Part shown: positions 32,300 to 57,776 of the stretch, piece by piece
Layout of the letters: each line of letters starts with the position of its first letter
Numbering within the stretch: position 1 is the first letter of the stretch
Virus record (IMG/VR): IMGVR_UViG_3300045988_022519
Span: 1 to 57,776 of that record
Source of the DNA: a virus
Strand: one strand, 5' to 3'
DNA length: 57,776 nt
Notes under the pieces: model-generated
Database searches by the model: none
Seen by the model: only the letters and a program-made list of their open reading frames with translations
Told to the model about the DNA's origin: nothing
Made by a program: the position numbers and the translations under genes

Positions 32300-32346
32300 A
32301 CCAAATCATCTCCAGTTCTCAATTGCTTTGTAATAGTTCAAATAAG

Positions 32347-32582: not shown

Positions 32583-32611
32583 TTTTAATCATTTTATATT
32601 CAGAAACATAA

Positions 32612-32890
32612 TTATTTTTGAATATTTTCTGGATTTGTTTTCATATCTTTAGATATTCGAATGTAAATACCTAAAGGATCATGAGCTATGATGCGATTCA
32701 TTGCTTGATTGTACTCATACTCTTGTTCTTCATCTGTCATCTCAATGGATGATGTGATGAATCGAGCAATGTAAGCACATGTATGATAGCCCATACGTTC
32801 ATCGTATGCATACCAACCATCATAGTCAATCCATGGATTGAAAGGATTGTCAATAGTAGTAAGCATGTATTCTTTATCTGCCATCATCAA
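32612..32890 (-). CDS. Hypothetical protein (92 aa)
   Basis: ORF TTIDNPFNPWIDYDGWYAYDERMGYHTCAYIARF...; no family named. Confidence 0.6.
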   Translation of the reverse strand: MMMADKEYMLTTIDNPFNPWIDYDGWYAYDERMGYHTCAYIARFITSSIEMTDEEQEYEYNQAMNRIIAHDPLGIYIRISKDMKTNPENIQK

Positions 32891-32911: not shown

Positions 32912-35704
32912 TTAGTCTTTGTCATCAGAAGTTCCAGCCTTCTTAGGTTCAAGGTTCCTATAGAGAGTGGATGTAGAGATGCCAAGACGCTCTGCTACCT
33001 GTGATTGTGTATAGCCACGTTTGAGTAAGGTTTCAGCCATGCTAAGCATAGATGCTGACATACCAGTCTCAGTATGTGGCATAGCCAATTGCTTCAACTT
33101 GTCAGGATCTGAGTTAGCCAGTATTCTGCTAAGTGTATTAGCGCTGACTGCATGATTCTGTATGGCTTCCCATTCCTTATCAGTGATGTCAATCTGTTGC
33201 TTTTTGGCACCGGTTCTCTGACGGGCCTCTGTAAGACACTGTCCTTTAAGACGTTTCTTATCAGAGTTATCATATTCTGGATGCTCATCCAACTTGATTT
33301 TATATAGTTGGTTTGCAACAAACTGGGCTCGGCGTTCCAAAGGAGAGTTCTTTTCTGCAATGTTAAGTTTAGCATTGAGAGATTGAACTTCAGTCGCATA
33401 CTTCTGCTTGGCTGCTGGATCATACTTGAAAGAACCGGCAGACAGATATGATTTGCGGGTTTGATTTGCCAGGGCCTTCATTTTATTAGCATAGTCTGCA
33501 TAAATATTTTCCATCTGGGTACCAGTTGAAAGAGAATATGCATCCTTTGCATAAGCCATCTTAGTGGTCTTTGTAAGATAAGGAATCGTCTTTTCGGAAA
33601 TGATGTTCCCTTCTTTGTCATACTTTTTCTTCACATAAGAACGATTTGTATTCTTATAGCGAAGTTCACCAGTATTTGGATCGATGGGACCACCTTCAGA
33701 AGCTTTCCAAAGACGACGTTCGGGAACATCGATCTCAGACTTAGCTCTAGAAATAAGAGTCGAAGCACCACCTGGTTTTCCACCACCAGGTTTGGGCTGA
33801 TACTTTGCCTTAAGAGCATCAATTCCATTATCGATTTCAGACTGACGCCAATTAAGCTTATGCTTCTCGGCATCAATAACCACCATCGAATGACGAACTG
33901 CCCTTTCGATCTCAGACCATTCCGCACCTTTAAGGGTCATGTCTGTAATAAGGTTTGAGACCTTACCCATCTCAGTTCCCTTTTGCTTTTTGGTCATTAC
34001 TTTCATGCCTTCATAGGCAGGATATGCCTCTTTAGGATCAAAGTTTTTAAGACCAGCAAGCGGAGCTCGAGTCTTAATCTCATGTCTTGGGTTCGGAATA
34101 ACCAAAACATTATCACCATCGAAATCTGCACCAGAAAGAATTTCAGCAACATGCGAATTAATACCTACTGCATCACTTGGATGAGTTCCCATAACTCGCT
34201 TTGCTTCTGCATTTTTGTTGTTGACTTTCAATTCTGGAATTTCGAATTTACCTCCATGTGGGAAACGAATAAGAACTACATCTTCACCATCACGAAGATG
34301 AGGGGCGTAGATCTCATTGTCCTTCAAAGAGGTGATCGGTAAAATAACTTTAGTCGCCTGACGTGGCATAGCTGCTGCCTTTAGATCTACAGCCGCTGTG
34401 TCGCATTCATCTGCAAACTCTTTAAGCATCTTGGCTTTTACAATCGGATTTGTCAGACTCATAATATCATCATACTGACTCTTACGAACCTGGTAATCAA
34501 TATCCAATTGTTTCTTGGCAAGACTCTTGTCCTGTTTTGAAAGCATCTGAGATGGAAGCACAGACTTCCATTCCGACCAAACACCTTCTCCATTGACAAG
34601 ATTTATAGCGGACTGCTTCTGGTTTCCGTCCTTATCGATATAATGATAGTTCTTGAAGGTTGCACCGAATGGAATATCCCAATCGATATCACCTTGGCTA
34701 CCATCAGGATTCTTGACTTTCTTCAAAGGCTTCAAAACATCATCAATTTCATTTGTCTTTCCTGTTTTAGGATCGACTCGATGCTTGTTCGTGTTGAATA
34801 TGATGTCAACGCCTTTAGGGAAGTCCTTTTCTTGACCGTAGACAGCCATACCTTTCAAATATGACTTATCTCCAACATTAATTCGGACCTGTGCGTATAG
34901 CATATTTCCCATACGAAGATCAGCAGCCGAAGGACGAATCTCCATAACGCCATCTTTTTCGATTCCGCCTTCTTCATTGTAACGAATTTTCACTCGTTTA
35001 GGATCGACGGAAATCGGCCTTTGAAATTTCGAACCTTGTCCCTCAGGATGTTTTTCATCAAGAGGATTTGCGATTGATTTAAATAAGGATGGATTATCCC
35101 AAATATCCTTCACAGTCGTTCCTGGAGCCAATAGAACCTTAATATCAGTGGTATTATCTGGTCCACTCGCTCCAAGTTGCTTAACATAAAGATGACCAAC
35201 ATGATAACCTTCATTTTTAAGCATCTCAGCTGCTACTTTTAGCTTATCGGCTGAACTATTCAAATATAGCTCAGTCGACTTGCCAATATCGACACATCCT
35301 TTTTCACCAATGGTATCTTTGAGATTTGTGGCGATTGTCTGAGCGACGTCAGTGCGAACTTTCAAAGAAGGATCCAGCCAATTACGAACCGTGGATTCAT
35401 TGGTATTCATTCGCTGAGCGATGGCCACATTAGAATATCCCTTTTTCTTCAGGCGGTATGCCATTGAAATATTCGCTTGACGTTCCTCTGCGAGCGCAAT
35501 GGACTTTTGGGCCCTGTATTGGGTTGTAGTCATTCCGAGAGCTCGTGCAATTTCAGTCTGTGTAAGACCTTTACTCGCAAGTTCTCGAGAACGACCTAAA
35601 AATCCAGGCTCATGCTGATATGGATCTTCACCAGATCCCCATTTGTATCGACCGGAACGACGTTTGACACCTTCGTGCATCAAATATGATTCTTCAAGCA
35701 TCAT
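32912..35704 (-). CDS. Putative single-chain two-barrel (YonO / RdRP-like) RNA polymerase with N- and C-terminal HTH modules
   Basis: beta-like barrel segment YLKGMAVYGQEKDFPKGVDIIFNTN (34784-34849). beta-prime-like catalytic segment DVVLIRFPHGG...ILSGADFDGDNVLVIPNP (DFDGD at 34112-34126). HTH-like LTQTEIARALGMTTTQYR, YSNVAIAQRMNTNESTVRNW, YTQSQVAERLGISTSTLYRNL. Confidence 0.6.
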   Translation of the reverse strand: MMLEESYLMHEGVKRRSGRYKWGSGEDPYQHEPGFLGRSRELASKGLTQTEIARALGMTTTQYRAQKSIALAEERQANISMAYRLKKKGYSNVAIAQRMNTNESTVRNWLDPSLKVRTDVAQTIATNLKDTIGEKGCVDIGKSTELYLNSSADKLKVAAEMLKNEGYHVGHLYVKQLGASGPDNTTDIKVLLAPGTTVKDIWDNPSLFKSIANPLDEKHPEGQGSKFQRPISVDPKRVKIRYNEEGGIEKDGVMEIRPSAADLRMGNMLYAQVRINVGDKSYLKGMAVYGQEKDFPKGVDIIFNTNKHRVDPKTGKTNEIDDVLKPLKKVKNPDGSQGDIDWDIPFGATFKNYHYIDKDGNQKQSAINLVNGEGVWSEWKSVLPSQMLSKQDKSLAKKQLDIDYQVRKSQYDDIMSLTNPIVKAKMLKEFADECDTAAVDLKAAAMPRQATKVILPITSLKDNEIYAPHLRDGEDVVLIRFPHGGKFEIPELKVNNKNAEAKRVMGTHPSDAVGINSHVAEILSGADFDGDNVLVIPNPRHEIKTRAPLAGLKNFDPKEAYPAYEGMKVMTKKQKGTEMGKVSNLITDMTLKGAEWSEIERAVRHSMVVIDAEKHKLNWRQSEIDNGIDALKAKYQPKPGGGKPGGASTLISRAKSEIDVPERRLWKASEGGPIDPNTGELRYKNTNRSYVKKKYDKEGNIISEKTIPYLTKTTKMAYAKDAYSLSTGTQMENIYADYANKMKALANQTRKSYLSAGSFKYDPAAKQKYATEVQSLNAKLNIAEKNSPLERRAQFVANQLYKIKLDEHPEYDNSDKKRLKGQCLTEARQRTGAKKQQIDITDKEWEAIQNHAVSANTLSRILANSDPDKLKQLAMPHTETGMSASMLSMAETLLKRGYTQSQVAERLGISTSTLYRNLEPKKAGTSDDKD

Positions 35705-36590: not shown

Positions 36591-36651
36591 CTTTCAAAGA
36601 ATATAGAAGCTAGGAAAATGCTCCGAAAAAGAGCATATTGTATGCCTATCT

Positions 36652-36679
36652 TCCATTATGTGCGATGTTATGAATCCGA
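36652..36679 (-). promoter_or_regulatory. Variant copy of the promoter-like motif
   Basis: Minus strand TCGGATTCATAACATCGCACATAATGGA directly after the stop of 36696-37022 and preceded by GTGCACAG; followed by hairpin AUGCUC-CGAAAAA-GAGCAU. Confidence 0.5.
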
Positions 36680-36695
36680 ATCGTGCACAGATGAA

Positions 36696-37022
36696 TCAGC
36701 AATATTCAAGGTGGTATCCAAAGAAGTTTGGCTTCCGTCCTTTGAGGACATCGTAGATCTCACTGGCACTGCATCCAAGCAAATATGACATTGTGGTCAC
36801 ATCGGTGTATGTCTTTCCGGTTTCGATGATACGAACCGGTTTGTGAGATTTGCTTCTCCAACTATCCTTCCAGCAAATATGGATACTATTGACAACTCCT
36901 CGATTACCAGGATGGTTGAGGGCTTTGAGGATCGCATCTTCGGTCGTCTCCAGATATAAAGCTGCAGACTTCGGAGATGACAATGTCTTCTGATCCTCGA
37001 TTACATAAACTTCCTTACCCAT
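36696..37022 (-). CDS. Stand-alone homing-endonuclease-type DNA-binding (NUMOD/IENR-like) protein
   Basis: 108 aa; C-terminus VRIIETGKTYTDVTTMSYLLGCSASEIYDVLKGRKPNFFGYHLEYC parallels the C-terminus of the HNH enzyme at 37174-37725. Confidence 0.45.
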   Translation of the reverse strand: MGKEVYVIEDQKTLSSPKSAALYLETTEDAILKALNHPGNRGVVNSIHICWKDSWRSKSHKPVRIIETGKTYTDVTTMSYLLGCSASEIYDVLKGRKPNFFGYHLEYC

Positions 37023-37129
37023 TTCAAATTCCTTTTCTAAACAAAAATAAAGGAGAGATGTTTTCGCTGCGCATCTGGAATGATCCTATGAGTTCAACTT
37101 GCTGAATATGCATGCGAACAAAAACATCT

Positions 37130-37157
37130 CTCATATAGTGCGATGATTTGAATCCGA
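37130..37157 (-). promoter_or_regulatory. Variant copy of the promoter-like motif
   Basis: Minus strand TCGGATTCAAATCATCGCACTATATGAG preceded by ATGCACAG; followed by a 12-bp-stem hairpin (gagagatgtttt / aaaacatctctc). Confidence 0.45.
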
Positions 37158-37173
37158 TTAATGCACAGATTAA

Positions 37174-37725
37174 TCAGACTCGTATGAAGTGGTATCCATG
37201 TATGTCATCTATTCCTTCTTTCGAAATATAAGCCAGATAGCCGATGCAACAATCGCCGAGACCTTTCTTCTCGAGCCATCGCATGGCATCTCGTGCTGAA
37301 TCGAATATAGTTCCTGTCTCAACGCATTTGATTGGGATTGGTTTATGCTTGGGCTCTTTATGGTGAAGTCCGTAATTGATGCTTGCTCGACCTTTAGGTT
37401 TGCTTGGCCAAATATCTGTGTTGTATGGTTCTATCTCATAAATAAGATCGGCTTGATCCATTGCAACAAGATTTGAAAGCTCATCATTTTCTGGATCCAT
37501 GTCATCATGCATTATGACATAATATGAGTCATTAAATTCAAATTCCGGATGGAACGCCCAATATACCAAACGAGCTACCTGTCGATTAGATCCTCCAATA
37601 CATACTTGCGAATATCCGTTTCGTTTAAACTTTCTTAAGATTCTTTCTGTTTTGGTTCTGCGAATATCACCTTCATCAGATGCCTCGTAATTCGGGAAAC
37701 CCGGAATCTGTCGCCATTCTACCAT
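37174..37725 (-). CDS. HNH homing endonuclease with NUMOD4-like N-terminus
   Basis: WRQIPGFPNYEASDEGDIRR (NUMOD4 pattern), VARLVYWAF..., degenerate H-N-N region IMHDDMDPENDELSNLV, C-terminal DNA-binding module CVETGTIFDSARDAMRWL. Confidence 0.7.
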   Translation of the reverse strand: MVEWRQIPGFPNYEASDEGDIRRTKTERILRKFKRNGYSQVCIGGSNRQVARLVYWAFHPEFEFNDSYYVIMHDDMDPENDELSNLVAMDQADLIYEIEPYNTDIWPSKPKGRASINYGLHHKEPKHKPIPIKCVETGTIFDSARDAMRWLEKKGLGDCCIGYLAYISKEGIDDIHGYHFIRV

Positions 37726-37868: not shown

Positions 37869-37983
37869 AAACCATCCTCGAAAAATAAGCCCAAAAGTCC
37901 CAAAAACGTTGGAATTTCAACGTTTTCAGCACTTTTGAGACCCATAAACCATCCTCGAAAAATAGACCCAAAAGTCCAAAAAA
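37869..37983. repeat. Two 38-nt direct repeats, 77-nt period (iteron-like)
   Basis: aaaccatcctcgaaaaataagcccaaaagtcccaaaaa (37869-37906) vs aaaccatcctcgaaaaatagacccaaaagtccaaaaaa (37946-37983). Confidence 0.85.
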
Positions 37984-37990
37984 TCAAAGT

Positions 37991-38090
37991 TGTGCACAGA
38001 TGAGCATTTTTCGAATACCCCCTAACTTGATGAAAAATTCGGATTTTTTCATCAATTTTTCGAGGTTCGAAAAATGCTCATCTGTGCACA
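37991..38090. repeat. Perfect 25-bp inverted repeat with a nested 11-bp inverted repeat
   Basis: tgtgcacagatgagcatttttcgaa (37991-38015) / ttcgaaaaatgctcatctgtgcaca (38066-38090); inner ttgatgaaaaa/tttttcatcaa (38027-38055). Confidence 0.9.
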
Positions 38091-38109
38091 CCCATTTTTC
38101 AAGGCCCTT

Positions 38110-38131
38110 CATTTGTGCACATGCACAAATG
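38110..38131. repeat. 10-bp-arm palindrome containing TGTGCACA
   Basis: catttgtgca-ca-tgcacaaatg; third TGTGCACA octamer within 140 nt. Confidence 0.8.
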
Positions 38132-38143
38132 AAATCGACCAAA

Positions 38144-38653
38144 TCACCATGCATTTAGTGTCATAAATGGCTCCAAATCTACTGAAAAATCGGTCGGAAT
38201 AGGCACATCAAACACCTTTCTACACTTGTGACAGTACACTTTATGTGTCAAATATACGTCATTCATGCTTGAAATTTCGGATCTAGACATGCCCCAAGGA
38301 AGTAATCTTGGCGAAATATCTAGTTGATTCCAATGAAAACAGTGGTTTTTACTTACAAAATCACGCACACAATCGATAGCAATACCTGAAATATACGGTA
38401 ATTCCTCGATTCCGCATACGAATTTCGTGCGTTTATGGCACCCAATACAGTATGCACGCATCTCAAAACCGTCATTTCCATACATTCCGACCAAATTTTC
38501 GAAGTCATTCGGGTCTTTTGGGTCAAAATCTTCAGGATAAATATCCGGAATCGTTATGGCACACACCGTATTGAAGGGGCATTTACACCCCAAAAGGGTT
38601 CTAGCCATACGATATGCGCCCGCGACTTCATCATAATCCATCTGAAACTTCAC
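38144..38653 (-). CDS. Cys-rich (zinc-finger-like) hypothetical protein (169 aa)
   Basis: CKCP...C, CIGCHKRTKFVC and CHKC clusters; ATGA overlap with the helicase gene. Confidence 0.6.
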   Translation of the reverse strand: MKFQMDYDEVAGAYRMARTLLGCKCPFNTVCAITIPDIYPEDFDPKDPNDFENLVGMYGNDGFEMRAYCIGCHKRTKFVCGIEELPYISGIAIDCVRDFVSKNHCFHWNQLDISPRLLPWGMSRSEISSMNDVYLTHKVYCHKCRKVFDVPIPTDFSVDLEPFMTLNAW

Positions 38654-42348: not shown

Positions 42349-42633
42349 TCATTTCGTTTCCTCAATTTCCATACGATTATAAGCATGAAGTGTAATATCA
42401 TCGATCTTGTTAATCGGTCCGGAAATTCGTACAAGTTTTTGGCAGCCAGTGCACATGAGGATCGCTCCATATGCTTTTTCGCCATCGGAATTCTCGAATA
42501 CATAATTCGAGATAAAATTCACAGGTGCCTGGCAATCACAATCCAGAATATCATCGATGAGTTCACTGTATTCATCAACTTCTGGAGATTCGTTTTTCAT
42601 GATTATCCTTTCAATCAAAGAATAAGGATCCAT
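42349..42633 (-). CDS. Cys-rich zinc-ribbon-like hypothetical protein (94 aa)
   Basis: CDCQ...CTGCQ; downstream of promoter motif 42750-42777 and a roughly 110-nt leader. Confidence 0.55.
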   Translation of the reverse strand: MDPYSLIERIIMKNESPEVDEYSELIDDILDCDCQAPVNFISNYVFENSDGEKAYGAILMCTGCQKLVRISGPINKIDDITLHAYNRMEIEETK

Positions 42634-42749
42634 GTTTCCATGAATCCAAAAATATAATGAAAGAATTCAGCAATCGGCCCAACGAAAACCTAATTGCGGT
42701 AGGTGTGGAAACGTCCACACGCCTTCGTGTCTTACCTTTTTATTATCCT

Positions 42750-42777
42750 TTCATTATAAGCCATGTTTTTATCGCGA
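42750..42777 (-). promoter_or_regulatory. Conserved 28-nt promoter-like motif
   Basis: Minus strand TCGCGATAAAAACATGGCTTATAATGAA; leader contains hairpin gtgtgga-aacg-tccacac. Confidence 0.6.
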
Positions 42778-43035: not shown

Positions 43036-44145
43036 TCAGTTAACACCATTGAATAGTCTTTCCATTGTCTTGTTTGATTCCGGATTCGGTGAAATATAAG
43101 GTTCATCTGAAACAAACCATCCATAGTCACCTCGTTCATTGATCGCTCCAATTGCATCATCGGCAAGTTTTTCGTAATATGACATGTCGATTTCATTATT
43201 GAGATTACGATCACGGACTATTGATGCTTCTTTCCACCGATAGCCTTTTGCTCCAGTGGCACTTGAATATCCTCCTTTGCCATCGCTTCTGACAAGTTCT
43301 CCACCGCCGAAACCACTTTTGACTGGAATGAATGCACCAACTTTTCCAACGAATGAGTAATTATGCTCATCTGCTGGTAGATCTTCATTGAAGTCGAGAT
43401 ATAGTGATGTCTGTACACTTTTAGTCTCCGATAGATCCGATAGGCTGATTGGCTCACCTGAAAATAAGGTCTTGAATACATATGGAACCTGAAACTGCAA
43501 CCCTGTAGCGGTCCATTCACCAGCGTGTTCACCCCATGCGGAATGAGCAATATACGTGGACTTATTGACAATGCAAAGCTTGTCATAAGTTGCCTCGTGT
43601 TCGAATGTGTATCCATACTTATGTCCAAAATCAGTCACCCAGTTGATAATATAATCATCAGCATCTGCGATCTTGATCGAATCAGTTTTGATGTGGACTA
43701 CGGTATAACCCATCTCCTGGACTTTATGCTTCAGCGTGATCATAAATAATGCACCACGCTTGGCAACTTTATTGTCCTTGTTTCGATCTCCAGGACCAGC
43801 TGCGACATCGTTGAACCTTGTCGGAAAATGCGCCGAAGTCAGACCATAAACAGAATTGATCGGAATCTTCAATGCTGTTGACAGGATCTTCTGGTTCTCA
43901 CGAAGCTCGGCATCTGTGAATTTGTTGTCCAGAAGCTTTTCCGCGGTTGCGAAATCTCCATGTTTGATTGCGATACGCGTATCCAGAATATCCTTGTATC
44001 GTTTTGTATATGGTCCGAACATGTTCATAGCAATGATCGAATGCGGATGCATCGAAGCAATATCCAGCAATGCGACATTACCGAACATGCCACCTAGCAT
44101 TGGTTTGTCAGTCATGATTTCTGTAATACTCCTCCGAAAGTTCAT
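43036..44145 (-). CDS. Family B DNA polymerase, C-terminal (palm/thumb) half
   Basis: Motif A LLDIASMHPHSII (about 44040-44075), motif B KIPINSVYGL (about 43841-43870), motif C HIKTDSI (about 43669-43697). Alternative start ATG 44115 (MTDKPMLGG...) is coupled to the stop of the preceding small ORF. Confidence 0.85.
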   Translation of the reverse strand: MNFRRSITEIMTDKPMLGGMFGNVALLDIASMHPHSIIAMNMFGPYTKRYKDILDTRIAIKHGDFATAEKLLDNKFTDAELRENQKILSTALKIPINSVYGLTSAHFPTRFNDVAAGPGDRNKDNKVAKRGALFMITLKHKVQEMGYTVVHIKTDSIKIADADDYIINWVTDFGHKYGYTFEHEATYDKLCIVNKSTYIAHSAWGEHAGEWTATGLQFQVPYVFKTLFSGEPISLSDLSETKSVQTSLYLDFNEDLPADEHNYSFVGKVGAFIPVKSGFGGGELVRSDGKGGYSSATGAKGYRWKEASIVRDRNLNNEIDMSYYEKLADDAIGAINERGDYGWFVSDEPYISPNPESNKTMERLFNGVN

Positions 44146-44281: not shown

Positions 44282-44382
44282 TATTCATCTCCGAAAAATA
44301 GAGCAATGGCGAGAAATATCACGATAATAGCAATACCGATCAATGTCTCGCCACTGAAGTTTTCAAATATCTCTTCAATCAT
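44281..44382 (-). CDS. Small membrane ORF (33 aa) inside the polymerase split
   Basis: [33 protein letters not shown]; ATGA overlap with the thyA stop. Confidence 0.4.
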
Positions 44383-45272
44383 ACAGCCACAGGAGCCTTG
44401 ATTGCGGGATGACACTTGTAGTTTTCCAGATGGAAGTCTTCAAGCTTGTAGCTGAAAATATCCTTGGCTTTATCGATCTTCATCTTCGGGAAAGGATATG
44501 GAGTTCGATGAAGCTCTGTTTCAACCTGATCGAGATGATTCAGATAAATATGGCAATCGCCACCAGTCCAGATCAAACGTCCAGGTTCAAGACCAGTCTG
44601 TTGGGCCATCATCATAGTCAACAGAGAATATGATGCGATGTTAAACGGAACTCCGAGGAACATGTCTGCAGACCTCTGATAGATCTGACAATCAAGACGT
44701 TCGGATTCCGTAACATAGAACTGGAAGAACGTATGACATGGAGGAAGAGCCATATCAGGAATCTTGGACGGATTCCAGGCACTCACAATGATCCTGCGAG
44801 AATATGGATCGTTCTTGATAAGATCGATGGCATTCTGTATCTGATCAATATGATCGCCATTCCAGTCACGCCATTGCTTACCATAGATCGGTCCGAGATC
44901 TCCATTCTCGTCTGCCCATTCATCCCAAATATGAACACCATTGTCATTCAGGTATTTGATGTTGGTATCACCATTGAGGAACCACAGAAGTTCGGCAATT
45001 ACACCTTTCAAATATACCTTCTTGGTGGTAACCAGTGGGAAATATAGCGACAGATAGAATTCCATCTGGAGACCAAATGTCGACAGAGTACCAACTCCTG
45101 TTCGATCCTTACGAATGGTTCCGAGATCGACTACCTTTTTCAATGTCTGTTCATAAATATCGTTACAGAATGTTGTGGAATCACGAAGATGCGCGACTCT
45201 GACAAAATCATTGTCCATATATTTCAGAACATTCTTATACATGTCTGGAAGGGTTTCTTGAATATCAGTCAT
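44379..45272 (-). CDS. thyA: Thymidylate synthase (ThyA family)
   Basis: [24 protein letters not shown] (catalytic Cys), [27 protein letters not shown]. Confidence 0.95.
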
Positions 45273-45291: not shown

Positions 45292-45537
45292 TTAGATGAA
45301 AAATAGTGCTTTATCGTCTTGAAGATAACTGCTAACCGCAGTGGTATTCGATTTTGACAGATACGTTACTTCGTAAATACGATCATCGCTTGGTTCATCT
45401 GTTACGACAAACGCATAGTAATTCCCACAAATATATCCACTCGATTTGATAGACAGATTGTAATCTCTTTTCTGTTTTAAATATCCCTTCTTATCGATAT
45501 AGCGACGAACCGCATATTCGATTAACTGATAATTCAT
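45292..45537 (-). CDS. Hypothetical protein (81 aa) inside the polymerase split
   Basis: ATG 45537 with GGGAGGAAC RBS and ATGA overlap with the stop of the 953-aa gene. Confidence 0.5.
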   Translation of the reverse strand: MNYQLIEYAVRRYIDKKGYLKQKRDYNLSIKSSGYICGNYYAFVVTDEPSDDRIYEVTYLSKSNTTAVSSYLQDDKALFFI

Positions 45538-48395
45538 TGTTCCTCCCATGGATGTTTAATATTCATATAATCCTGATCGACATCGCCATTCTCCATGCCA
45601 TACACAAATACGTAACCGCCTTCCGACGGATACTCGCCCATATACTTGGACTTTTGATCCTTTGGTGCATACGGATCAAATGTATAGCCAGGAAATAGTT
45701 CAGCAAGATCCGGATAATTAAATTTGCTTTGTGGATTACGCTCGTCACCGAATATGATCTTGGCTGTATGCGTATTGTTGGTATCGTTTACTGTAAGACC
45801 TGAAAGCTGAGCCAGAATTTTACGAGCTTCGAAATCACCACTTAGATGATTGAAGACTGCCTTTGTGGCTCGAACATCGTCCTTACAATATGATTCCACC
45901 AATGGCCATTGCTCTTTTGGAATATCAGAATCCCAATCCATGCCAAGCTCATGATGATCGATTCCCAATTCGATCTCCCATTTCTTAAGAGATTGCTTCT
46001 TTGATGAGAAATCGTAGATATCCGCATATGAGATGTTGTATGCTTGACCGAATAATGCATCTTTTTGACCAGATACAATACGTTTCGACAGATCATACAA
46101 TTGGGCATTACTATAATTAAGAAATCCCCAAGCATAGAGAATATGATTGTCATACTTACGGTTATTGAATCCGACCAGATTCTGTTCCATAAGCGTGATA
46201 ACGGATTCCCTAGGTGGATTGATCCATGATCTGACAATATCGGAATCACTATCCATAAAGCAGATCATAAAGAGATTCGGAAACACCTCGACATCGTAAA
46301 ATATGATTTTATCCGTGTTTGACGGATTTAATCCCTCTGGCATTTTTTCAGATTGGAATTTCATATTCGTCACCACAGTCAGGCAATAATCTGCCCAATG
46401 TGTTGATCCCATGGCGAAGTGCATGACCTTTTGTTGGAGATCTCTGACATCATAAACCAAGCCTTGCTCATATGCCTCATCCAGTACCTTTGCGATGAAA
46501 TCGATACTTGGTTTGGTTCCAGGTTGGTACTTTTTGAGAAGAGCATTCTTTATGATGTTCCTCAGATGCCTTTCATCCTGAATCTCCTGTTGATTGATCA
46601 AGGTCTTTTCTCCTTTCAACGGAAGTCCTGAGGAAATATGGGCCACTTCGAGATCATTACATCTGGATAACTGTCGTCTTAAAGACGATTTGCCTTTGTA
46701 AACTTTGATCTCAATATGAGTACTGTAAAGATTCTTCAATCTCGATACATCACCATCATAAATATAATGGAGATGCAGACCGTTTCCGGACTTTGACACT
46801 TCAGTATATGTAGGAGGAAACTCAGAAGCTGCTTTGATATTTGCTTCCAGATTCTTCTCTCCATCCTCACCTCGTACATCAAAGTCGAGAACAATATGAT
46901 TCTCGGGTACTCTGACCCAATGAAGTTTCTTGGTATCAATATCTTTCAATGTGGTTTTTACATTGTCCCATGCCTCCTTTGGAGCTCCGGATTCATCGTT
47001 TCTGGCATATTGAGCTTGATAATCTGCAGCAAGTTTATCGAACTCAGAAATATCAGTATCCAAACGGATCCAGCTAGTCGGTGTTTCGGTCTTTGTCTTT
47101 TTCGATGTGAACTTGTCATATTTGAATCCCTGGAATGTGACATTACTTCCATGTCGTTCCATTGTATCAAAATATGTCTGAAGTTCATACATGAAGTCGG
47201 AACGTTTAAGCATTACATTGACTTTGAAGTCATCCGCCCATGCTTTATACGTTCTCCACAACATTGCGAGACTCAGTGGATCATCGGTATCGAATATCTC
47301 GAATTCATCCTGAATGAAATTATACACATCATTCGTTCGAGCAATCATATCAGTTGGAATATATCCATCATAATATGATCGACCGAGATTCCGATAAATC
47401 TTCAGACAATGATCGGCAATCGCCCCGAGCTCGAATTTGATTCCGTCAAGATCTTTGAAATACTCATCCGGCTTTATTTTCTTACCAGTCGGATGAATAT
47501 CAATCAATCTTCGAATCAAACCAGATTTCGAGTCAGTTACTTTTACCGGATGATTCGTAGCCATGAATAACATGGTGCGAAGTTCGATCGGATACTGTTT
47601 GACACCTTTCTCATTCACCTGTATAGTTTCGTGAGATACTATCTGGTTGAGAATCGTGTTATTCCATAGACGTGACAAATCACCATCATGTTGAATCGCC
47701 ACCAATGGAGCATTTCGGAATGCAGCAGTTGCAAACTGATATCCTTTACCGAGATCTTCAGCTGAGAAATATGCGATGTATCCAGGAAATAGTTCTTCAA
47801 TGATGTTCAAAATCGTCGATTTACCAGTTCCAGGATCACCATAGATCACGAACATCTTTTGGATCTTCTGAATATCATGACCATCAATCATGGCTCCGAT
47901 ACCCCACTCTAGTTTTTGTCTCTCAGCTGGAGCATAGAGTGTCGACATAAGTTCCTCATAGCAAGGACACTTACCCGGTTTGATTGAATAATCAAGTTTC
48001 AGTGTCGCATAATCTTCACGCTCTGGAACCTGATCAGAAAATATCATCTTCTGATTCAGGGTTCCAGGACTATTATCAAGGTTTCTTAGGAAACCCAAAT
48101 ATCGATTCCAACACCCATTGCTTCCATCATTCATGAACATTGGTGCGACAACAGCACCATCTTTAGATTCATAGGAATCATAGAAGTTTTGAATATCATT
48201 GTCGATCAGTTTACTGAGTGTTTCACGTTTCTGAGACCACAGATGAGTTGAAGGATCATAGACAGCGTAGAACTCGCCTCCTTTTACCAACAAATCATGA
48301 AACCCTCGGACCTTCGGATCTGCATAGATTTGTTCATGGCCTTTGGTCGTAGGCTTCACACGAATCTTTACCTGATCCAAGGTTACTCCTTTCAC
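45534..48395 (-). CDS. Fusion protein: SF3 (D5/P4-type) helicase, AEP primase-polymerase, PolB 3'-5' exonuclease domain
   Basis: Walker A VIYGDPGTGKST. AEP motifs VLDFDV and SKSGNGLHLHY. ExoI FYDVEVF (about 46287-46298), ExoII NNRKYDNH (about 46140-46172), ExoIII YCKDDV (about 45862-45895). Ends PSEGGYVF... just before where PolB motif A is expected. Confidence 0.8.
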   Translation of the reverse strand: MKGVTLDQVKIRVKPTTKGHEQIYADPKVRGFHDLLVKGGEFYAVYDPSTHLWSQKRETLSKLIDNDIQNFYDSYESKDGAVVAPMFMNDGSNGCWNRYLGFLRNLDNSPGTLNQKMIFSDQVPEREDYATLKLDYSIKPGKCPCYEELMSTLYAPAERQKLEWGIGAMIDGHDIQKIQKMFVIYGDPGTGKSTILNIIEELFPGYIAYFSAEDLGKGYQFATAAFRNAPLVAIQHDGDLSRLWNNTILNQIVSHETIQVNEKGVKQYPIELRTMLFMATNHPVKVTDSKSGLIRRLIDIHPTGKKIKPDEYFKDLDGIKFELGAIADHCLKIYRNLGRSYYDGYIPTDMIARTNDVYNFIQDEFEIFDTDDPLSLAMLWRTYKAWADDFKVNVMLKRSDFMYELQTYFDTMERHGSNVTFQGFKYDKFTSKKTKTETPTSWIRLDTDISEFDKLAADYQAQYARNDESGAPKEAWDNVKTTLKDIDTKKLHWVRVPENHIVLDFDVRGEDGEKNLEANIKAASEFPPTYTEVSKSGNGLHLHYIYDGDVSRLKNLYSTHIEIKVYKGKSSLRRQLSRCNDLEVAHISSGLPLKGEKTLINQQEIQDERHLRNIIKNALLKKYQPGTKPSIDFIAKVLDEAYEQGLVYDVRDLQQKVMHFAMGSTHWADYCLTVVTNMKFQSEKMPEGLNPSNTDKIIFYDVEVFPNLFMICFMDSDSDIVRSWINPPRESVITLMEQNLVGFNNRKYDNHILYAWGFLNYSNAQLYDLSKRIVSGQKDALFGQAYNISYADIYDFSSKKQSLKKWEIELGIDHHELGMDWDSDIPKEQWPLVESYCKDDVRATKAVFNHLSGDFEARKILAQLSGLTVNDTNNTHTAKIIFGDERNPQSKFNYPDLAELFPGYTFDPYAPKDQKSKYMGEYPSEGGYVFVYGMENGDVDQDYMNIKHPWEEQ

Positions 48396-51202: not shown

Positions 51203-51360
51203 CCTTCTGGATGCTCCTTCCGGTATTTGCGAGCACTCTGCAATCGCATGAGAACTGCGAATACCTGCTTATCTGACATGTGATTTACTTTATGAGCCCA
51301 GCTGGGTGCGCTATAGAATTTAGTCAACTCTGCTCGGGCTTGTTCTGCGCTTACCATCAT
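51199..51360 (-). CDS. Small hypothetical protein (53 aa)
   Basis: Start reset to ATG 51360 (GAGGAG RBS, overlaps the stop of the upstream gene): MMVSAEQARAELTKFYSAPSWAHKVNHMSDKQVFAVLMRL... Confidence 0.5.
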   Translation of the reverse strand: MMVSAEQARAELTKFYSAPSWAHKVNHMSDKQVFAVLMRLQSARKYRKEHPEG

Positions 51361-51977
51361 ATCTCCTCGGTCGGCGGAAGTTCCATTAGCCATCCTTCTC
51401 GGATCTGACGGATCTGGGCACGTGCCATCGATCGCCATCCCCACTTTTCATCAGTAAATGTCGCTTGGGATCCTTTACCGATTGCGTGTAGAAAATCACC
51501 AACAGTGGCTTGTCCCTTACGCTCGATTAGTTCTGTCAAATATGTCAGAACCTCATCGGCTTGATCCCGGGATGGAGCAATGAAATTACTGAACTCGTGA
51601 GTATCTCGTTCACGTTGAGTAAGTTCGCGAAATCCGCGCTGCGACGATTGACGATTGCTGTAGTATTGACCATAGCTTGTGAATTCACGACGACTCGGAC
51701 GTGCTCCACGTGTCGGTGCATCGTTTCCATAAATAAGACGGTCCATACCTTTAGTGACAATATCATGCAGAAGATCCTTGCCGGTTGGGATGATGACATC
51801 ATAAATGATGCACGTCATCACATCCTTGACATCTCCACCCAGAAATGTCTCCGCAACCTTCTGGGCTTTGTTCTTCTTTTTCTCAACGAAATTGTTACCG
51901 ATCACTTTTCGATCTTCAGTTGAATCTTCAAGACCAAGAGCTTTACGGGAAATATCGATGTCTTTATTTTCAGACAT
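51357..51977 (-). CDS. Hypothetical protein (206 aa)
   Basis: ORF; no family named. Confidence 0.6.
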   Translation of the reverse strand: MSENKDIDISRKALGLEDSTEDRKVIGNNFVEKKKNKAQKVAETFLGGDVKDVMTCIIYDVIIPTGKDLLHDIVTKGMDRLIYGNDAPTRGARPSRREFTSYGQYYSNRQSSQRGFRELTQRERDTHEFSNFIAPSRDQADEVLTYLTELIERKGQATVGDFLHAIGKGSQATFTDEKWGWRSMARAQIRQIREGWLMELPPTEEI

Positions 51978-52077
51978 TGTAAAACCTTTCGGAATAGTTC
52001 ATGAAAAACTCCAAATGAGGAGCCATGACCGAAACAAGATCACAGCTCCTCATATTAAGCGATGAAAATATCGCGAA

Positions 52078-52744: not shown

Positions 52745-53008
52745 TCAATCTTCGTTCGATTCTTCCGAGTCGATGGATTCGTTATCTTCAGCAACTTCAG
52801 CTTTTGGAATATCCTTCGACTTCTGTTTGGTCATCTTCTCTTTAACGATATCGGATACACGAACCTTGACAATGGTTTCTGCAATAACACTTACTGCAAG
52901 AGCACCAAGTCCAAGGACCGCGTTTCCGGCATTCGCTCCGAGAGCGATGTCCTCCAGAGTTTTGGTCTTTCCAAGAGCTTTCGCTGCGATAGAAAATACA
53001 TTTGCCAT
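52745..53008 (-). CDS. Small membrane protein with acidic tail (87 aa)
   Basis: NAVLGLGALAVSVIAETIV hydrophobic core; TAAGGAG RBS. Confidence 0.6.
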   Translation of the reverse strand: MANVFSIAAKALGKTKTLEDIALGANAGNAVLGLGALAVSVIAETIVKVRVSDIVKEKMTKQKSKDIPKAEVAEDNESIDSEESNED

Positions 53009-53036
53009 AATAACTCCTTATAATAAAACGTATAGT

Positions 53037-53064
53037 TTCATTATAAGCAATGTTTTTACTGCGA
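53037..53064 (-). promoter_or_regulatory. Conserved 28-nt promoter-like motif
   Basis: Minus strand TCGCAGTAAAAACATTGCTTATAATGAA. Confidence 0.55.
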
Positions 53065-53854: not shown

Positions 53855-53888
53855 AAAATATAGGTCCCATGTTTCCATGAGACCTATA
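53855..53888 (-). terminator. 13-bp hairpin with GAAA tetraloop plus U-run
   Basis: Minus strand UAUAGGUCUCAUG-GAAA-CAUGGGACCUAUA followed by UUUUG; homologous element at 56283-56315. Confidence 0.65.
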
Positions 53889-53904: not shown

Positions 53905-54093
53905 TCAGTCCTCGGTAATTTCGTTAACGTTGGTATCGTTTACATCTGCGGAATCGTCATCATCAGATACCAATTCAGCAGAGGCCTGAATCAATGCGAT
54001 AGTTGCAATGCAACCAAGCACGATTCCGCCACAAATGAAATCGGTCTTATGATCTTTGACGAATTTCTTAGCAGATTCAAACTTTTCCTTCAT
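53905..54093 (-). CDS. Small membrane protein with acidic tail (62 aa)
   Basis: Start reset to ATG 54093 (AAAGGAGTTATC-ATG): MKEKFESAKKFVKDHKTDFICGGIVLGCIATIALI... Confidence 0.55.
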   Translation of the reverse strand: MKEKFESAKKFVKDHKTDFICGGIVLGCIATIALIQASAELVSDDDDSADVNDTNVNEITED

Positions 54094-54124
54094 GATAACT
54101 CCTTTGTGAGAGGTTTGAATATCT

Positions 54125-54152
54125 TTCATTATGTGCCATGTTTTTATTGCGA
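54125..54152 (-). promoter_or_regulatory. Conserved 28-nt promoter-like motif
   Basis: Minus strand TCGCAATAAAAACATGGCACATAATGAA. Confidence 0.55.
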
Positions 54153-55334: not shown

Positions 55335-55480
55335 TCTGTTTCTCCTTCTATTATTTGACTTATTGCGACATGCTCTTTCTCATCGAGTTCTTCGAGCATT
55401 CGTGGATCATCCAATCGTATCATTATATCAATATCGCCATACATTGTTTGATGGGCTTTTATGACAGTTCCATTTATCAT
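55331..55480 (-). CDS. Small ORF (49 aa)
   Basis: MINGTVIKAHQTMYGDIDIMIRLDDPRMLEELDEKEHVAISQIIEGETE; ATGA overlaps at both ends fill an otherwise empty 140-nt gap. Confidence 0.45.
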   Translation of the reverse strand: MINGTVIKAHQTMYGDIDIMIRLDDPRMLEELDEKEHVAISQIIEGETE

Positions 55481-56064
55481 TTCTTAATTCCATTCATTTG
55501 TATGGATCGAATTATACCATTTGCGATCATTGACGGGTTTTTATTGGAATTATAAATACTTCTATCTATGACACATTTGTAAATATCCTTGTTTATATCA
55601 TGGTTTCTAAGTTCTGCAAAATCCTCTCGATCTGATTCGATTCGTCTATCGACTTCTTTCGGATCATCTCCTCGTGCAAGAGCACGCATCTGGCAAATCT
55701 CCTCGGGTGCATCTAAGAATACACCGAATACCGATTCTCCGATATCAGGAGCCAGATATTCAAACGATGATGGATCCAGGATCGTAACCGTATCGCGATC
55801 CTGCTGGAATTCCTTCATCGAGATTCCGTATCGCCAGATTCCGAACTTCGTAGAATATACACGAATCGCCCGAACATCATCCCAAATCACAGCGGATTTG
55901 AATCCTTCATTATCCGTGAAAAAATATTCGTCATCGGGTTCGTTAGGTCTTTTTGGTCGTGTTGTTATAGCTCTGGTTTTGACAAAACCATTTTTCGCCA
56001 ATTCATTGGCGATTGTTGTCTTCCCCGATCCCATTGGACCTATCAGGAAAATATCAGTTTTCAT
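55477..56064 (-). CDS. Guanylate kinase-like / dNMP kinase
   Basis: P-loop LIGPMGSGKTT and TTRPKRPNEPDDEYFF (guanylate kinase signature TTR.PR..E..G.dY.F). Confidence 0.7.
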   Translation of the reverse strand: MKTDIFLIGPMGSGKTTIANELAKNGFVKTRAITTRPKRPNEPDDEYFFTDNEGFKSAVIWDDVRAIRVYSTKFGIWRYGISMKEFQQDRDTVTILDPSSFEYLAPDIGESVFGVFLDAPEEICQMRALARGDDPKEVDRRIESDREDFAELRNHDINKDIYKCVIDRSIYNSNKNPSMIANGIIRSIQMNGIKK

Positions 56065-56282: not shown

Positions 56283-56315
56283 AAATATAGATCCCATGTT
56301 TCCATGAGATCTATA
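56283..56315 (-). terminator. 13-bp hairpin with GAAA tetraloop (homologue of 53855-53888)
   Basis: Minus strand UAUAGAUCUCAUG-GAAA-CAUGGGAUCUAUA; differs from the other copy by one compensated base pair (G-C to A-U). Confidence 0.6.
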
Positions 56316-56341: not shown

Positions 56342-56644
56342 TCAGGCTTTAGGTTTCGGAATGAATCCTAGAACTTTAGATGTAATCACATGTGATTCCT
56401 CAAATCCAAGCATGACGATGATTCCGAGCAAAGTGGTTCCAGCTGCAATCGACTTTACAATCGTGTCGTGCCTATCCGAGTTGTAATCTCGTTTGGCTTC
56501 GACAAGAGTCTTAATGTCACTTACCAACTTTCCACGTGCTTCGGAATCATCGTCAAGCGTATACAATTGAGAAATCAGCAACGTGATGTCATCATCAAAA
56601 TTCTGATTGATATCATTGCGATTGTCCTTATTGTTCTTGAACAT
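56342..56644 (-). CDS. C-terminally membrane-anchored hypothetical protein (100 aa)
   Basis: Start reset to ATG 56644 (GAAAGGAG RBS) because the ORF-track ATG is the ATG inside the TATAATGAAA promoter box. Confidence 0.55.
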   Translation of the reverse strand: MFKNNKDNRNDINQNFDDDITLLISQLYTLDDDSEARGKLVSDIKTLVEAKRDYNSDRHDTIVKSIAAGTTLLGIIVMLGFEESHVITSKVLGFIPKPKA

Positions 56645-56663
56645 ATTGCTCCTTTCAAATGAT

Positions 56664-56691
56664 TTCATTATATGCCATGAATATATCGCGA
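56664..56691 (-). promoter_or_regulatory. Conserved 28-nt promoter-like motif
   Basis: Minus strand TCGCGATATATTCATGGCATATAATGAA. Confidence 0.6.
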
Positions 56692-56692
56692 C

Positions 56693-56736
56693 AAAAATAA
56701 AAGCCCATGTAATTATTATAAACTACATGGGCTTTT
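56693..56736 (-). terminator. Hairpin terminator
   Basis: Minus strand AAAAGCCCAUGUA-loop-UACAUGGGCUUUU followed by AUUUUUGU. Confidence 0.75.
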
Positions 56737-56737
56737 A

Positions 56738-57073
56738 TTAGTTCTTATTATTCTTCAGCTCAGTGAAGGTGTCAACAATACGTTGAAATTCTTCATAGTC
56801 GAGAGGATTGAGAACGTCGTTCTCCTTGATCCATTTGATGGCTTCATCGATATGATCAGCATCCGGTACCGTGATCGCGATTTTTGCGGGATCGAGTACG
56901 TATGTCAGAGAATCTGCACAATCTGTAATATTGTTATCAAGATTCCTGATTTCACGAATCGCGAATGCAAAATATGCGATCCAAATACCAGCCGCTGCTG
57001 TTGCGGTGATTCCAAGAATATGGTCCTGGCAGAACTTGCTGACATTCCTCTTTACTTCATCGAACTTCTTCAT
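56738..57073 (-). CDS. Membrane protein (111 aa)
   Basis: TM ILGITATAAAGIWIAYFAFAI; AAAGGAGTTAATC-ATG. Confidence 0.6.
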   Translation of the reverse strand: MKKFDEVKRNVSKFCQDHILGITATAAAGIWIAYFAFAIREIRNLDNNITDCADSLTYVLDPAKIAITVPDADHIDEAIKWIKENDVLNPLDYEEFQRIVDTFTELKNNKN

Positions 57074-57105
57074 GATTAACTCCTTTGTAAGAGGTTTCGA
57101 ATAGT

Positions 57106-57133
57106 TTCATTATATGCAATGATTTTAATGCGA
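57106..57133 (-). promoter_or_regulatory. Conserved 28-nt promoter-like motif
   Basis: Minus strand TCGCATTAAAATCATTGCATATAATGAA; promoter plus leader 57071-57135 is near-identical to 57408-57472. Confidence 0.6.
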
Positions 57134-57161
57134 AAATAAAGAGGATTAAAATCGATTTTAA

Positions 57162-57410
57162 TTACCAACGTAAAATAGTGGAATTGGTCACATGACTTTC
57201 AATAGCCTGCTTCTCTTTTATTGAGATGTGGCGAACTGTGATAGAATTGCAACCATCACAATGTGTTATAGTAATTGAACATTTAGGTGCGATCAGCTTT
57301 ACATCCTTGATGAAACGTTCTATGGCATCTTCGTCGAAGCTAAACAGTACAATTTCTTCGGTATGCAGGTTATTCATGAAAATGGAAATTAGCTGAACAA
57401 TGTCGAACAT
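57162..57410 (-). CDS. Hypothetical protein (82 aa)
   Basis: ORF with AAAGGAGTTAATC-ATG. Confidence 0.6.
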   Translation of the reverse strand: MFDIVQLISIFMNNLHTEEIVLFSFDEDAIERFIKDVKLIAPKCSITITHCDGCNSITVRHISIKEKQAIESHVTNSTILRW

Positions 57411-57442
57411 GATTAACTCCTTTATAAGAGGTTTCGAATAGT

Positions 57443-57470
57443 TTCATTATATGCAATGATTTTAATGTGA
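57443..57470 (-). promoter_or_regulatory. Conserved 28-nt promoter-like motif
   Basis: Minus strand TCACATTAAAATCATTGCATATAATGAA. Confidence 0.55.
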
Positions 57471-57503
57471 AAGAAATAAGAAGCCATGTAAATATGGCTT
57501 CTT
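57471..57503 (-). terminator. Hairpin terminator
   Basis: Minus strand AAGAAGCCAU-AUUUAC-AUGGCUUCUU followed by AUUUCUUU. Confidence 0.7.
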
Positions 57504-57509
57504 ATAATC

Positions 57510-57725
57510 TTATAGAAGTGAGTAACCTACGTAATAACCCCACAAGATCAATGCTATCATTCCAACAGCCATAAACATTCGGATGATTTTGGCTCCGATT
57601 GTGATACGATACTTCAAAGCTACGAATGTATCTTTGATGAAAATATACACAGCTGGGATAAAGATCGTTCCGAGTGTAAATATAACTGCCGAACAAATAA
57701 CATAATAAATATATGCGGTTTCCAT
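57510..57725 (-). CDS. Two-TM small membrane protein (71 aa)
   Basis: METAYIYYVICSAVIFTLGTIFIPAVYIFI...IRMFMAVGMIALILWGYYVGY; its 5' end is duplicated at nt 1-48 by the terminal overlap. Confidence 0.6.
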   Translation of the reverse strand: METAYIYYVICSAVIFTLGTIFIPAVYIFIKDTFVALKYRITIGAKIIRMFMAVGMIALILWGYYVGYSLL

Positions 57726-57776
57726 GATTTATCCTTTCTATTCATTATGTTCAATGTTTTGATCGCGAAAAAAAAT
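57678..57776. repeat. Terminal direct repeat, right copy (identical to 1-99)
   Basis: Exact 99-nt identity with the window start. Confidence 0.95.
57741..57768 (-). promoter_or_regulatory. Conserved 28-nt promoter-like motif
   Basis: Minus strand TCGCGATCAAAACATTGAACATAATGAA, upstream of 57510-57725. Confidence 0.6.

Follow-up and report, generated by a model that had tools for sequence, protein, structure and literature searches.

Which RNA polymerase reads the promoter-like element that recurs ahead of the small genes of IMG/VR virus record IMGVR_UViG_3300045988_022519? The window, i.e., the whole stretch of DNA analysed here, comprises positions 1 to 57,776 of that record and belongs to a siphovirus whose plausible genes all lie on the minus strand. 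A first-pass annotation had noticed twelve copies of an element ending in TATAAT and had offered two explanations for it, namely, an unusually constrained class of host sigma-A promoters, or the recognition sequence of a phage factor, with the helix-turn-helix (HTH)-bearing protein encoded at 32912-35704 as the candidate. The natural reading of the element is that it is a promoter, and on comparison with related phages it is probably the promoter of the phage's own 930-aa polymerase rather than of the host enzyme.

The element and its copies in the window

The conserved unit is tTCGC-N7-(A/T)CA-N5-TATAAT-GAAA, which spans 29 bases and is always found on the coding (minus) strand. Ten strong copies, two degenerate copies and one weak copy are present in the window, and they precede small early/middle genes. 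The core CATNGNNTATAATGAA occurs 16 times in the window versus 4.0 ± 1.7 times in shuffled sequences. With a position weight matrix (PWM) built from the motif sites themselves, the scores are sharply bimodal: ten sites reach 37.6-46.5 bits, the two degenerate ones 24.9 (at 36652) and 14.9 bits (at 37130), and everything else stays at or below 12. Most copies are followed, 10-45 nt downstream, by an AAGGAG-type ribosome-binding site and a small open reading frame (ORF).

The element is present on the minus strand at all twelve positions given in the first-pass annotation. The window begins and ends with the same 99 bases, so that it represents a circular assembly of a 57,677-bp genome, and the copy noted at 64 (63-91) lies in this terminal overlap and is, as had been remarked, the duplicate of the one at 57740-57768. 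The consensus originally written for the element did not hold: taken literally, it matches nowhere in the window, even with up to 3 mismatches allowed, and nowhere in IMG/VR, because its A-tract segment varies. The palindrome TCGCGA, regarded at first as the conserved unit, is found in only 5 of the 10 strong copies, and it is the asymmetric TCGC that is conserved instead. A hairpin and T-run directly precede 7 of the 10 strong copies, in line with the description of terminators before most of them, and the blocks 57071-57135 and 57408-57472, described as near-identical, show 2 differences over the ~64 nt compared. The late region (~1100-32900) is free of copies, again as described. Both the promoter reading and the arrangement in terminator-promoter-leader cassettes are supported.

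The copies, all on the minus strand, are placed as follows. TCGCGATCAAAACATTGAACATAATGAAT (57740-57768; 37.6 bits) stands upstream of a 71-aa gene (57510-57725); TCACATTAAAATCATTGCATATAATGAAA (57442-57470; 42.9 bits), with a terminator hairpin before it (57476-57505), stands upstream of an 82-aa gene (57162-57410); TCGCATTAAAATCATTGCATATAATGAAA (57105-57133; 46.3 bits) precedes a 111-aa gene (56738-57073); and TCGCGATATATTCATGGCATATAATGAAA (56663-56691; 40.9 bits), itself preceded by a hairpin and T-run, precedes a 100-aa gene (56342-56644). Further along, TCGCAATAAAAACATGGCACATAATGAAA (54124-54152; 42.4 bits) is followed by a 62-aa gene (53905-54093), and TCGCAGTAAAAACATTGCTTATAATGAAA (53036-53064; 43.4 bits) by an 87-aa gene (52745-53008). 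The weak thirteenth copy, TCGCGATATTTTCATCGCTTAATATGAGG (52048-52076), was absent from the earlier list; its hexamer is TAATAT and it lies upstream of the gene at 51357-51977. In the replication module, TCGCGATAAAAACATGGCTTATAATGAAA (42749-42777; 46.5 bits) is followed by a ~135-nt leader and then the gene at 42349-42600. The degenerate copy TCGGATTCAAATCATCGCACTATATGAGA (37129-37157) is situated between an HNH (NUMOD4) gene and a 108-aa gene, and the variant copy TCGGATTCATAACATCGCACATAATGGAA (36651-36679) heads the endonuclease-exonuclease-RNA polymerase operon, where relatives carry the motif at the equivalent position. Beyond the assembly junction, TCGCGATCGAAACATCGCATATAATGAAA (1048-1076; 43.2 bits) stands upstream of a 123-aa gene (653-1024) and TCGCGATAAAATCATAGCCTTTAATGAAA (567-595; 41.7 bits; hexamer TTTAAT) upstream of a 77-aa gene (314-547), with terminators before the copies at 1084-1116 and 603-641, respectively. 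The last of them is TCGCATTATAATCATAGCCTATAATGAAA (237-265; 41.5 bits).

Several other features are found around these copies. The ~130 nt that follow the copy at 237-265 (100-236, minus strand) hold no ORF and end in a terminator; they contain a transfer RNA (tRNA)-like T-arm, CCGGGTTCGAACCCCGG, at 149-165 and an anticodon-arm-like hairpin, and have a fold z-score of -2.1. ARAGORN and Rfam gave no match on this stretch, and no known RNA was detected by tRNA or Rfam scans at any motif copy in the window or downstream of it; the stretch may represent a decayed tRNA or a small RNA. The ~45 nt upstream of the two degenerate copies are homologous (36651-36725 and 37129-37203, minus strand), and the two copies flank the NUMOD4/HNH endonuclease gene (37174-37725) and the 108-aa gene, which looks like a promoter region duplicated through insertion of a homing-endonuclease cassette. 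Finally, two near-identical 30-nt hairpins are present on the minus strand at 53859-53888 and 56286-56315 (TATAGGTCTCATGGAAACATGGGACCTATA; variant TATAGATCTC...), each followed by TTTTGTCTAAGGA and then a gene start, with no promoter copy after either; these may be attenuators or processing sites within early operons.

The 930-aa polymerase and the motif across the phage group

The candidate reader of the motif is encoded on the minus strand at 32912-35704. Pfam recognizes only the HTH domains of this 930-aa protein (residues ~44-110 and 893-917), and a search of its sequence against the PDB likewise matched the HTH domains and nothing else. PHROG 4291 ('RNA-dependent RNA polymerase') matches it from end to end (E = 0), and its residues 526-531, ADFDGD, correspond to the DxDGD metal-binding loop of two-barrel polymerases and are invariant both in 7 and in 29 aligned homologues. 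An AlphaFold model, for which database homologues served as input, reached a mean predicted local distance difference test (pLDDT) score of 81 and a predicted template modelling score (pTM) of 0.70. With this model, Foldseek retrieved QDE-1 (E = 1e-10), plant RDR2 (6e-6) and the Thermus phage non-virion polymerases gp62/gp64 (8f5m and 8f72, P23-45-like; 1e-7 and 1e-6), all four with a probability of 1.0, yet with low TM-scores of ~0.27. Judged by sequence and model, the ORF is a single-chain two-barrel RNA polymerase of the QDE-1/YonO type. YonO, from the Bacillus prophage SPbeta, belongs to the same superfamily and is a single-chain two-barrel DNA-dependent RNA polymerase with the DxDGD loop (PMC5467207).

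Full-length homologues with ~50% identity were found by tblastn in 250 phage records, and the protein database contains at least 8000 clusters of them. In a preprint, the HTH-flanked protein had been proposed, on the basis of HHpred, to be a YonO/RdRP-like polymerase and was regarded as the signature gene of a supercluster that includes actinophage clusters AM, AU, AW, BI, CC, DJ and EL, Lactococcus 1706-like phages and Faecalibacterium phages; promoters were not analysed there. Besides nucleases and replication proteins, the polymerase is the sole transcription-related gene conserved throughout the group. Directly after it, at 32612-32887 (minus strand), lies a 91-aa gene that has no Pfam match and is found at the same position in six of six relatives checked (39-51% identity); its product is possibly a partner or cofactor of the polymerase.

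The motif is found in these relatives as well. The PWM derived from the window detects seven copies in Bifidobacterium phage BitterVaud1 and also clear, if weaker, ones in Streptomyces phage RosaAsantewaa, Arthrobacter phage Mudcat and Gordonia phage Secretariat, and the intergenic regions of Lactococcus phage 1706 hold about a dozen copies of (C)GCAtGTTTTACATAnaCTATAGTAGAAAG. A generic score, based on the shared boxes and spacing alone (TCGC, N7, ACA, N5, hexamer and purines), was applied to seven genomes, i.e., the window, the five phages just named and Rhodococcus phage ReqiPoco6. It gives 7-15 matches per genome, 78 of them on the coding strand against 1 on the opposite strand, and each of the seven genomes has 7-14 copies of the pattern CGC-N7-ACA-N5-TATA(A/G)T-purines. 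The clear copies are all located in the central small-gene region or the replication module, and some of those in ReqiPoco6 and 1706 stand directly before tRNA genes. One 50-kb stretch of SPbeta, the sole negative control, gave no match of 13.5 or higher. A scan of related phages with a weight matrix had been suggested in the first-pass annotation; motif and polymerase gene occur together in all those examined (7/7 genomes), whose known hosts represent six genera (Bifidobacterium, Streptomyces, Arthrobacter, Gordonia, Rhodococcus and Lactococcus) in two phyla. The HTH recognition helices, NESSVR in the N-terminal part and SxSTL at the C-terminus, are conserved in all seven phages, as are the TCGC and ACA boxes.

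The association also holds on a larger scale, the motif being present in metagenomic contigs by the hundred. The generic 14-base pattern matches at least 120 loci in IMG/VR; among the matches listed, 66 of 120 loci, many of them short, encode proteins of this phage group, and 50 of 120 carry two to nine copies on one strand. Conversely, 80 IMG/VR loci (905 kb in total) that were picked solely with the polymerase as query contain 61 sites on the strand of the polymerase gene and 1 on the other. Within the 67 of these loci that have enough upstream sequence, 31 carry a site within 2.5 kb upstream of the polymerase gene, at a median distance of 936 nt, so that the site fronts the endonuclease-exonuclease-polymerase operon; the variant copy of the window (36651-36679) occupies the same place. 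This operon-heading copy, ~0.9 kb upstream of the polymerase gene in the IMG/VR loci, is usually followed by AGAA (TATAATAGAA) and the early copies by GAGA or GAAA, and the AGAA type may form a subclass of different strength or timing. In a family-wide set from 127 sources, picked in part by a score that includes the hexamer, 465 sites lie on the major strand of their source and 0 on the minor strand. Taken together with the two-barrel fold and with a depositor's label on the 1706 homologue (see below), the presence of the motif in every polymerase-bearing relative examined favours recognition by the HTH-bearing polymerase.

Repeats of this kind have been described before under different interpretations. 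A '50-bp motif' with TATAAT in Gordonia phage Vardy was read as containing a sigma-70 -10 element with a possible regulatory role (PMC9671010), and a '32-bp repeat' in cluster AU Arthrobacter phages, Giantsbane among them, was read as recombination boundary sequences (bioRxiv 10.1101/2020.01.10.891226). Both are likewise intergenic and situated in the central small-gene region (compare the sites in Secretariat and Mudcat), and both are very probably the same element in relatives of the window phage. Neither paper links the repeat to a phage polymerase or notes its conservation beyond its own phage or cluster. The boundary reading of the Giantsbane preprint, together with the near-identity of whole cassettes and the TCGCGA palindrome of five copies, could suggest that the element is a site for cassette shuffling, or else an operator bound by a TCGCGA-specific repressor. 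Either role is very improbable, given the 465 to 0 strand split and the fixed short distance at which the element precedes a ribosome-binding site or tRNA gene, and the operator was rejected as the palindrome is not conserved, just the asymmetric TCGC. Recombination may exploit the repeats, which leaves their strand bias and fixed spacing unexplained.

Fit to host promoters and the proposed start site

A promoter read by the phage polymerase has to be weighed against a main rival in which the copies are early promoters of host sigma-A that lack a -35 box, TATAAT is the true -10, and later genes are left to the phage polymerase, as in the case of YonO. Binding would then be aided by the TCGC and ACA boxes and the T-run through UP-like or spacer effects, or these sequences would be inherited by descent. 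We regard this as possible though unlikely, and a number of points weigh in its favour or otherwise against our preferred reading. The hexamer TATAAT is a perfect sigma-70 -10 consensus, and most copies carry it in that form. Most phages leave their earliest genes to the host enzyme, and terminators composed of a hairpin and T-run are typical of units transcribed by the host polymerase. Promoters without a -35 box are common in Actinobacteria, which matters if the host of the window phage is one, and the closest relative infects Bifidobacterium. The association of the polymerase with the virion, on which the mechanism proposed below draws, comes from a depositor's label in one relative at 40% identity, and the proximity of Shine-Dalgarno sequences discussed below holds for ~8% of the sites only. 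The conservation figures of the family-wide set are partly circular, as that set was partly picked by a score including the hexamer. The Vardy genome announcement took the element for a sigma-70 promoter, and YonO, the one distant relative that has been characterised, serves a late operon, for which it uses a single start site (PMC5467207).

The sequence around the hexamer fits a sigma-70 promoter poorly. Neither a TTGACA-like -35 hexamer at 16-18 nt nor a TGn extended -10 is present at the motif in the window or in 1706. At a spacing of 17 nt the sequence reads TTnnTC or a T-run, in agreement with the first-pass remark that the element lacks a canonical -35 box, and TCGC stands upstream of the hexamer at a distance of 15 nt, or 13 nt when the box is taken as TCGCGA. 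In the window the hexamer is preceded by G-C-N, so that the G is one position further upstream than a TG extension requires; in the family as a whole, C predominates at the two positions preceding the hexamer, and in 1706 they are (A/G)C. Lactococcal sigma-A promoters normally rely on a -35 box or a TG extension, and it tells against the sigma-A interpretation that Lactococcus phage 1706 retains the boxes with unchanged spacing and has neither. Nor are sigma-70-like matches enriched in the genome (16 versus 11.8 ± 3.4 in shuffled sequences), and all but one of the 16 fall outside the motif copies. Of the two best, one, at 24328-24355 (minus strand; TTGACA, 16 nt, CATAAT; 11/12), stands just upstream of the protease-capsid fusion gene within the late operon, and the other (56775) is inside coding sequence; the former might allow the host polymerase to transcribe the gene of the most abundant late protein, or be a chance occurrence.

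The hexamer also appears to vary at a position where a sigma-70 -10 element would not be expected to. In sites with a single mismatch, position 2, which is equivalent to A-11, is changed to T, G or C in 18 and position 6, an almost invariant T, in 1, and among 27 sites found without use of the hexamer columns, 13 have A and 12 have T at position 2; the sites in both counts are not phylogenetically independent. The hexamer is mostly TTAAAT in RosaAsantewaa, and TATAGT in 12 of the 13 convincing copies of 1706. The sequence downstream of the hexamer is equally informative. In 30 of the 363 distinct family sites that are followed by a Shine-Dalgarno-led ORF, the Shine-Dalgarno core starts no more than 6 nt downstream of the hexamer and the start codon 9-20 nt after it, e.g., TATAATggaggtgaatatATG, CATGATgaaaggagttatcATG before an annotated BitterVaud1 gene, and the 1706 leader TATAGTagaaagaaggtataacactATG; several of the 30 are annotated gene starts. 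Transcription starting 6-8 nt downstream of the hexamer would sever these ribosome-binding sites without yielding a leaderless mRNA, which disfavours a sigma-70 start. In Gordonia and Rhodococcus phages, purines directly follow the hexamer and GAGACCCCTA is found after it, so that a start 6-8 nt downstream would fall on CCCC.

These observations, i.e., the lack of a -35 box or TG, the apparent variation at position 2, the close Shine-Dalgarno sequences and the C-run, make the conserved G/A right after TATAAT the likely start, and they disfavour the constrained host sigma-A class that the first-pass annotation had considered. Its expectation of transcripts beginning 6-8 nt after TATAAT is, judging from sequence alone, probably wrong. 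A start at the purine directly after TATAAT, which appears likely, would have a T7-like geometry, unlike that of sigma-70 open complexes. It further weighs against the sigma-A interpretation that no separate promoter motif which the phage polymerase might use was found around the late operon or at the genome end.

Another possibility is that host core polymerase is redirected by a phage specificity factor, in the manner of T4 MotA/AsiA or SPO1 gp28, with a box near -30 replacing the -35 element. A -10-like hexamer with a box centred ~13 nt upstream does resemble T4 middle promoters, and a small protein that went unrecognised could be the factor. The proteins scanned contained no sigma, MotA or AsiA domain, many small ORFs being outside that scan, and the group-conserved genes beside the polymerase include no other DNA-binding factor. 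As the arguments from start-site geometry against a sigma-70 -10 hold here too, a redirected host enzyme is considered improbable.

For the preferred phage-polymerase promoter, the following mechanism is proposed. The HTH domains would dock on TCGC (approximately -25 to -22, counted from the proposed start) and (A/T)CA (approximately -14 to -12), TATAAT at -6 to -1 would serve as the AT-rich melting region, and transcription would start at the conserved purine next to it (the G of GAAA). Each early cassette would then be a separate unit composed of a promoter, a short leader with a ribosome-binding site, a small gene and a hairpin terminator, and this promoter class would also stand at the head of a unit in the replication module and, in a variant form, of the endonuclease-exonuclease-polymerase operon. 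Since the polymerase's own operon uses the motif, as it does in most of the relatives, a bootstrap problem arises, and we infer that the first polymerase molecules are probably delivered with the virion, as in N4, crAss-like phages and P23-45. The 1706 record (EU081845) labels the polymerase homologue orf75, along with orf62 and orf71, 'structural protein', and the ReqiPoco6 record repeats this label for its homologue. The broadest form of the proposal can be put forward only tentatively: throughout this very large, two-phylum group of siphoviruses of Gram-positive bacteria, to which Bifidobacterium phages belong as well, a virion-carried HTH-fused polymerase of ~900 aa would read the ~29-bp TCGC-N7-ACA-N5-TATAAT element alone, start at the next purine and run the early/middle programme and its own operon without host sigma, and the late genes would be served only via read-through across the joined cohesive-end (cos) site.

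Genome context and comparison with known systems

The order of genes along the minus strand begins with the small-gene array, from 57.7 to ~52 kb and running on from 1.1 kb over the assembly junction. It is followed by two DUF6353 proteins, a primase-polymerase, a thymidylate-synthase homologue, a single-stranded DNA-binding protein and a helicase, then by HNH and nuclease genes, the 930-aa protein and a 310-nt gap, and after this gap by the terminase, portal, protease-capsid fusion, tail, tape measure and fibre genes. With 99.8% identity, the large terminase matches a 'Bacteriophage sp.' contig from human faeces, and megablast of the early region against known phages gave no match.

The gap between the polymerase operon and the late operon (32300-32610) contains, at 32534-32582 (minus strand), a G/C hairpin with the arms GAGGGGGTG...CACCCCCTC followed by CTGCATCGCCGCTCC. 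Hairpin and CTGCATCGCCGCTCC match the sequence at the right-hand end of the linear 1706, RosaAsantewaa, Mudcat, Secretariat and ReqiPoco6 genomes, as well as an internal gap of BitterVaud1, and the bases that follow, TTCGAAAATTCTCCGCGGG, resemble the left termini of the same relatives. By this match the gap is a probable cos site, which would place the physical genome end directly behind the polymerase operon. From the cos-like site to the terminase genes there is no motif copy, and a second, late-specific motif sought at the genome ends of relatives yielded the conserved cos sequence only. As a speculation, the late genes might be reached by read-through from the polymerase operon once the cos ends are joined.

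Some further features of the window deserve mention. The primase-polymerase is a single protein of ~1300 aa in relatives and in the window is split exactly at residue ~935 into ORFs of 953 aa (45534-48395) and 369 aa (43036-44145), both on the minus strand. The 1.4 kb between the halves hold an 85-aa ORF, the thymidylate-synthase homologue (44379-45272) and a 57-aa ORF, and the arrangement could mean that a mobile cassette has inserted or that the enzyme is truly split. Besides this homologue, the minus strand encodes a dCTP-deaminase-like protein (31405-32061; its gene lies between those for the small and the large terminase) and an AAA_18 nucleoside-kinase-like protein (55477-56064), and the three could serve ordinary nucleotide supply or DNA base modification. 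A ~120-nt inverted repeat at 37978-38101, which overlaps a small ORF (37984-38154), gives weak, sub-threshold Rfam matches to plant microRNA precursor models on both strands, indicating a long hairpin.

The prediction of the polymerase, the 'structural protein' label in 1706, the 50-bp motif of Vardy and the 32-bp repeat of cluster AU were already known. In the searchable literature, with subscription journals outside it, nothing was found that joins these four, and nothing on boxes and spacing kept from Lactococcus to Streptomyces phages or doubting their sigma-70 nature. The present comparison suggests a phage-polymerase promoter for the uncharacterised HTH-fused branch of two-barrel polymerases, which was previously without a known promoter. 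Two-barrel single-chain polymerases such as YonO serve as models for the ancestor of all cellular RNA polymerases, and the element bears on how such enzymes find promoters without sigma or general transcription factors. For an abundant HTH-carrying branch, several relatives of which are cultivable, the comparison offers a promoter that can be tested, its boxes defined, its spacing fixed and its start predicted, and one reading unites repeats that were reported earlier as a sigma-70 promoter and as recombination boundaries. Speculatively, host-independent transcription might bear on the spread of the group over two phyla and on its G+C content, which is far below that of its hosts. A compact, host-orthogonal polymerase-promoter pair would also be of interest for the engineering of Gram-positive bacteria.

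Set beside known systems, the element shares TATAAT with sigma-70/sigma-A promoters, extended -10 promoters and the MotA-dependent middle promoters of T4, the last of which have a box near -30 in place of the -35. It differs from a sigma-70 promoter in having neither a -35 nor a TG, in the apparently variable equivalent of A-11, and in the ribosome-binding sites and C-runs found at what would be the discriminator and start. In the yonN-yonK gap of SPbeta, the region of the mapped YonO start, no convincing copy was found, so that the motif of the HTH-fused polymerase family cannot be tied to the YonO promoter. T7 and SP6 offer a parallel in promoter layout, with a long conserved promoter in multiple copies, an upstream recognition part, an AT-rich TATA stretch that adjoins +1 and an initial transcript rich in purines; their polymerases have the right-hand and not the two-barrel fold, and the window motif is longer and split into boxes at fixed spacing.

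For virion delivery, N4 and the crAss-like phage phi14:2 are instructive, as in both a virion-carried polymerase transcribes the early genes, and gp66 of phi14:2 is two-barrel and QDE-1-like. Those polymerases are giant proteins of podoviruses, and N4 uses hairpin promoters; for the polymerase family of the window phage, virion carriage is suggested by the depositors' 'structural protein' label on 1706 orf75. P23-45 is likewise a siphovirus and has two two-barrel polymerases, each with its own mapped promoter motif. Its start sites and chromatin immunoprecipitation (ChIP) data are experimental, whereas the promoter of the window phage is proposed from sequence alone; the polymerase of the window phage, moreover, is not fused to the tape measure, has HTH domains at both ends and would use a different promoter sequence. 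What the two phages have in common is a single-chain two-barrel polymerase and phage-specific motifs upstream of early genes, and in P23-45, as in the group described here, the motifs track the polymerases across relatives.

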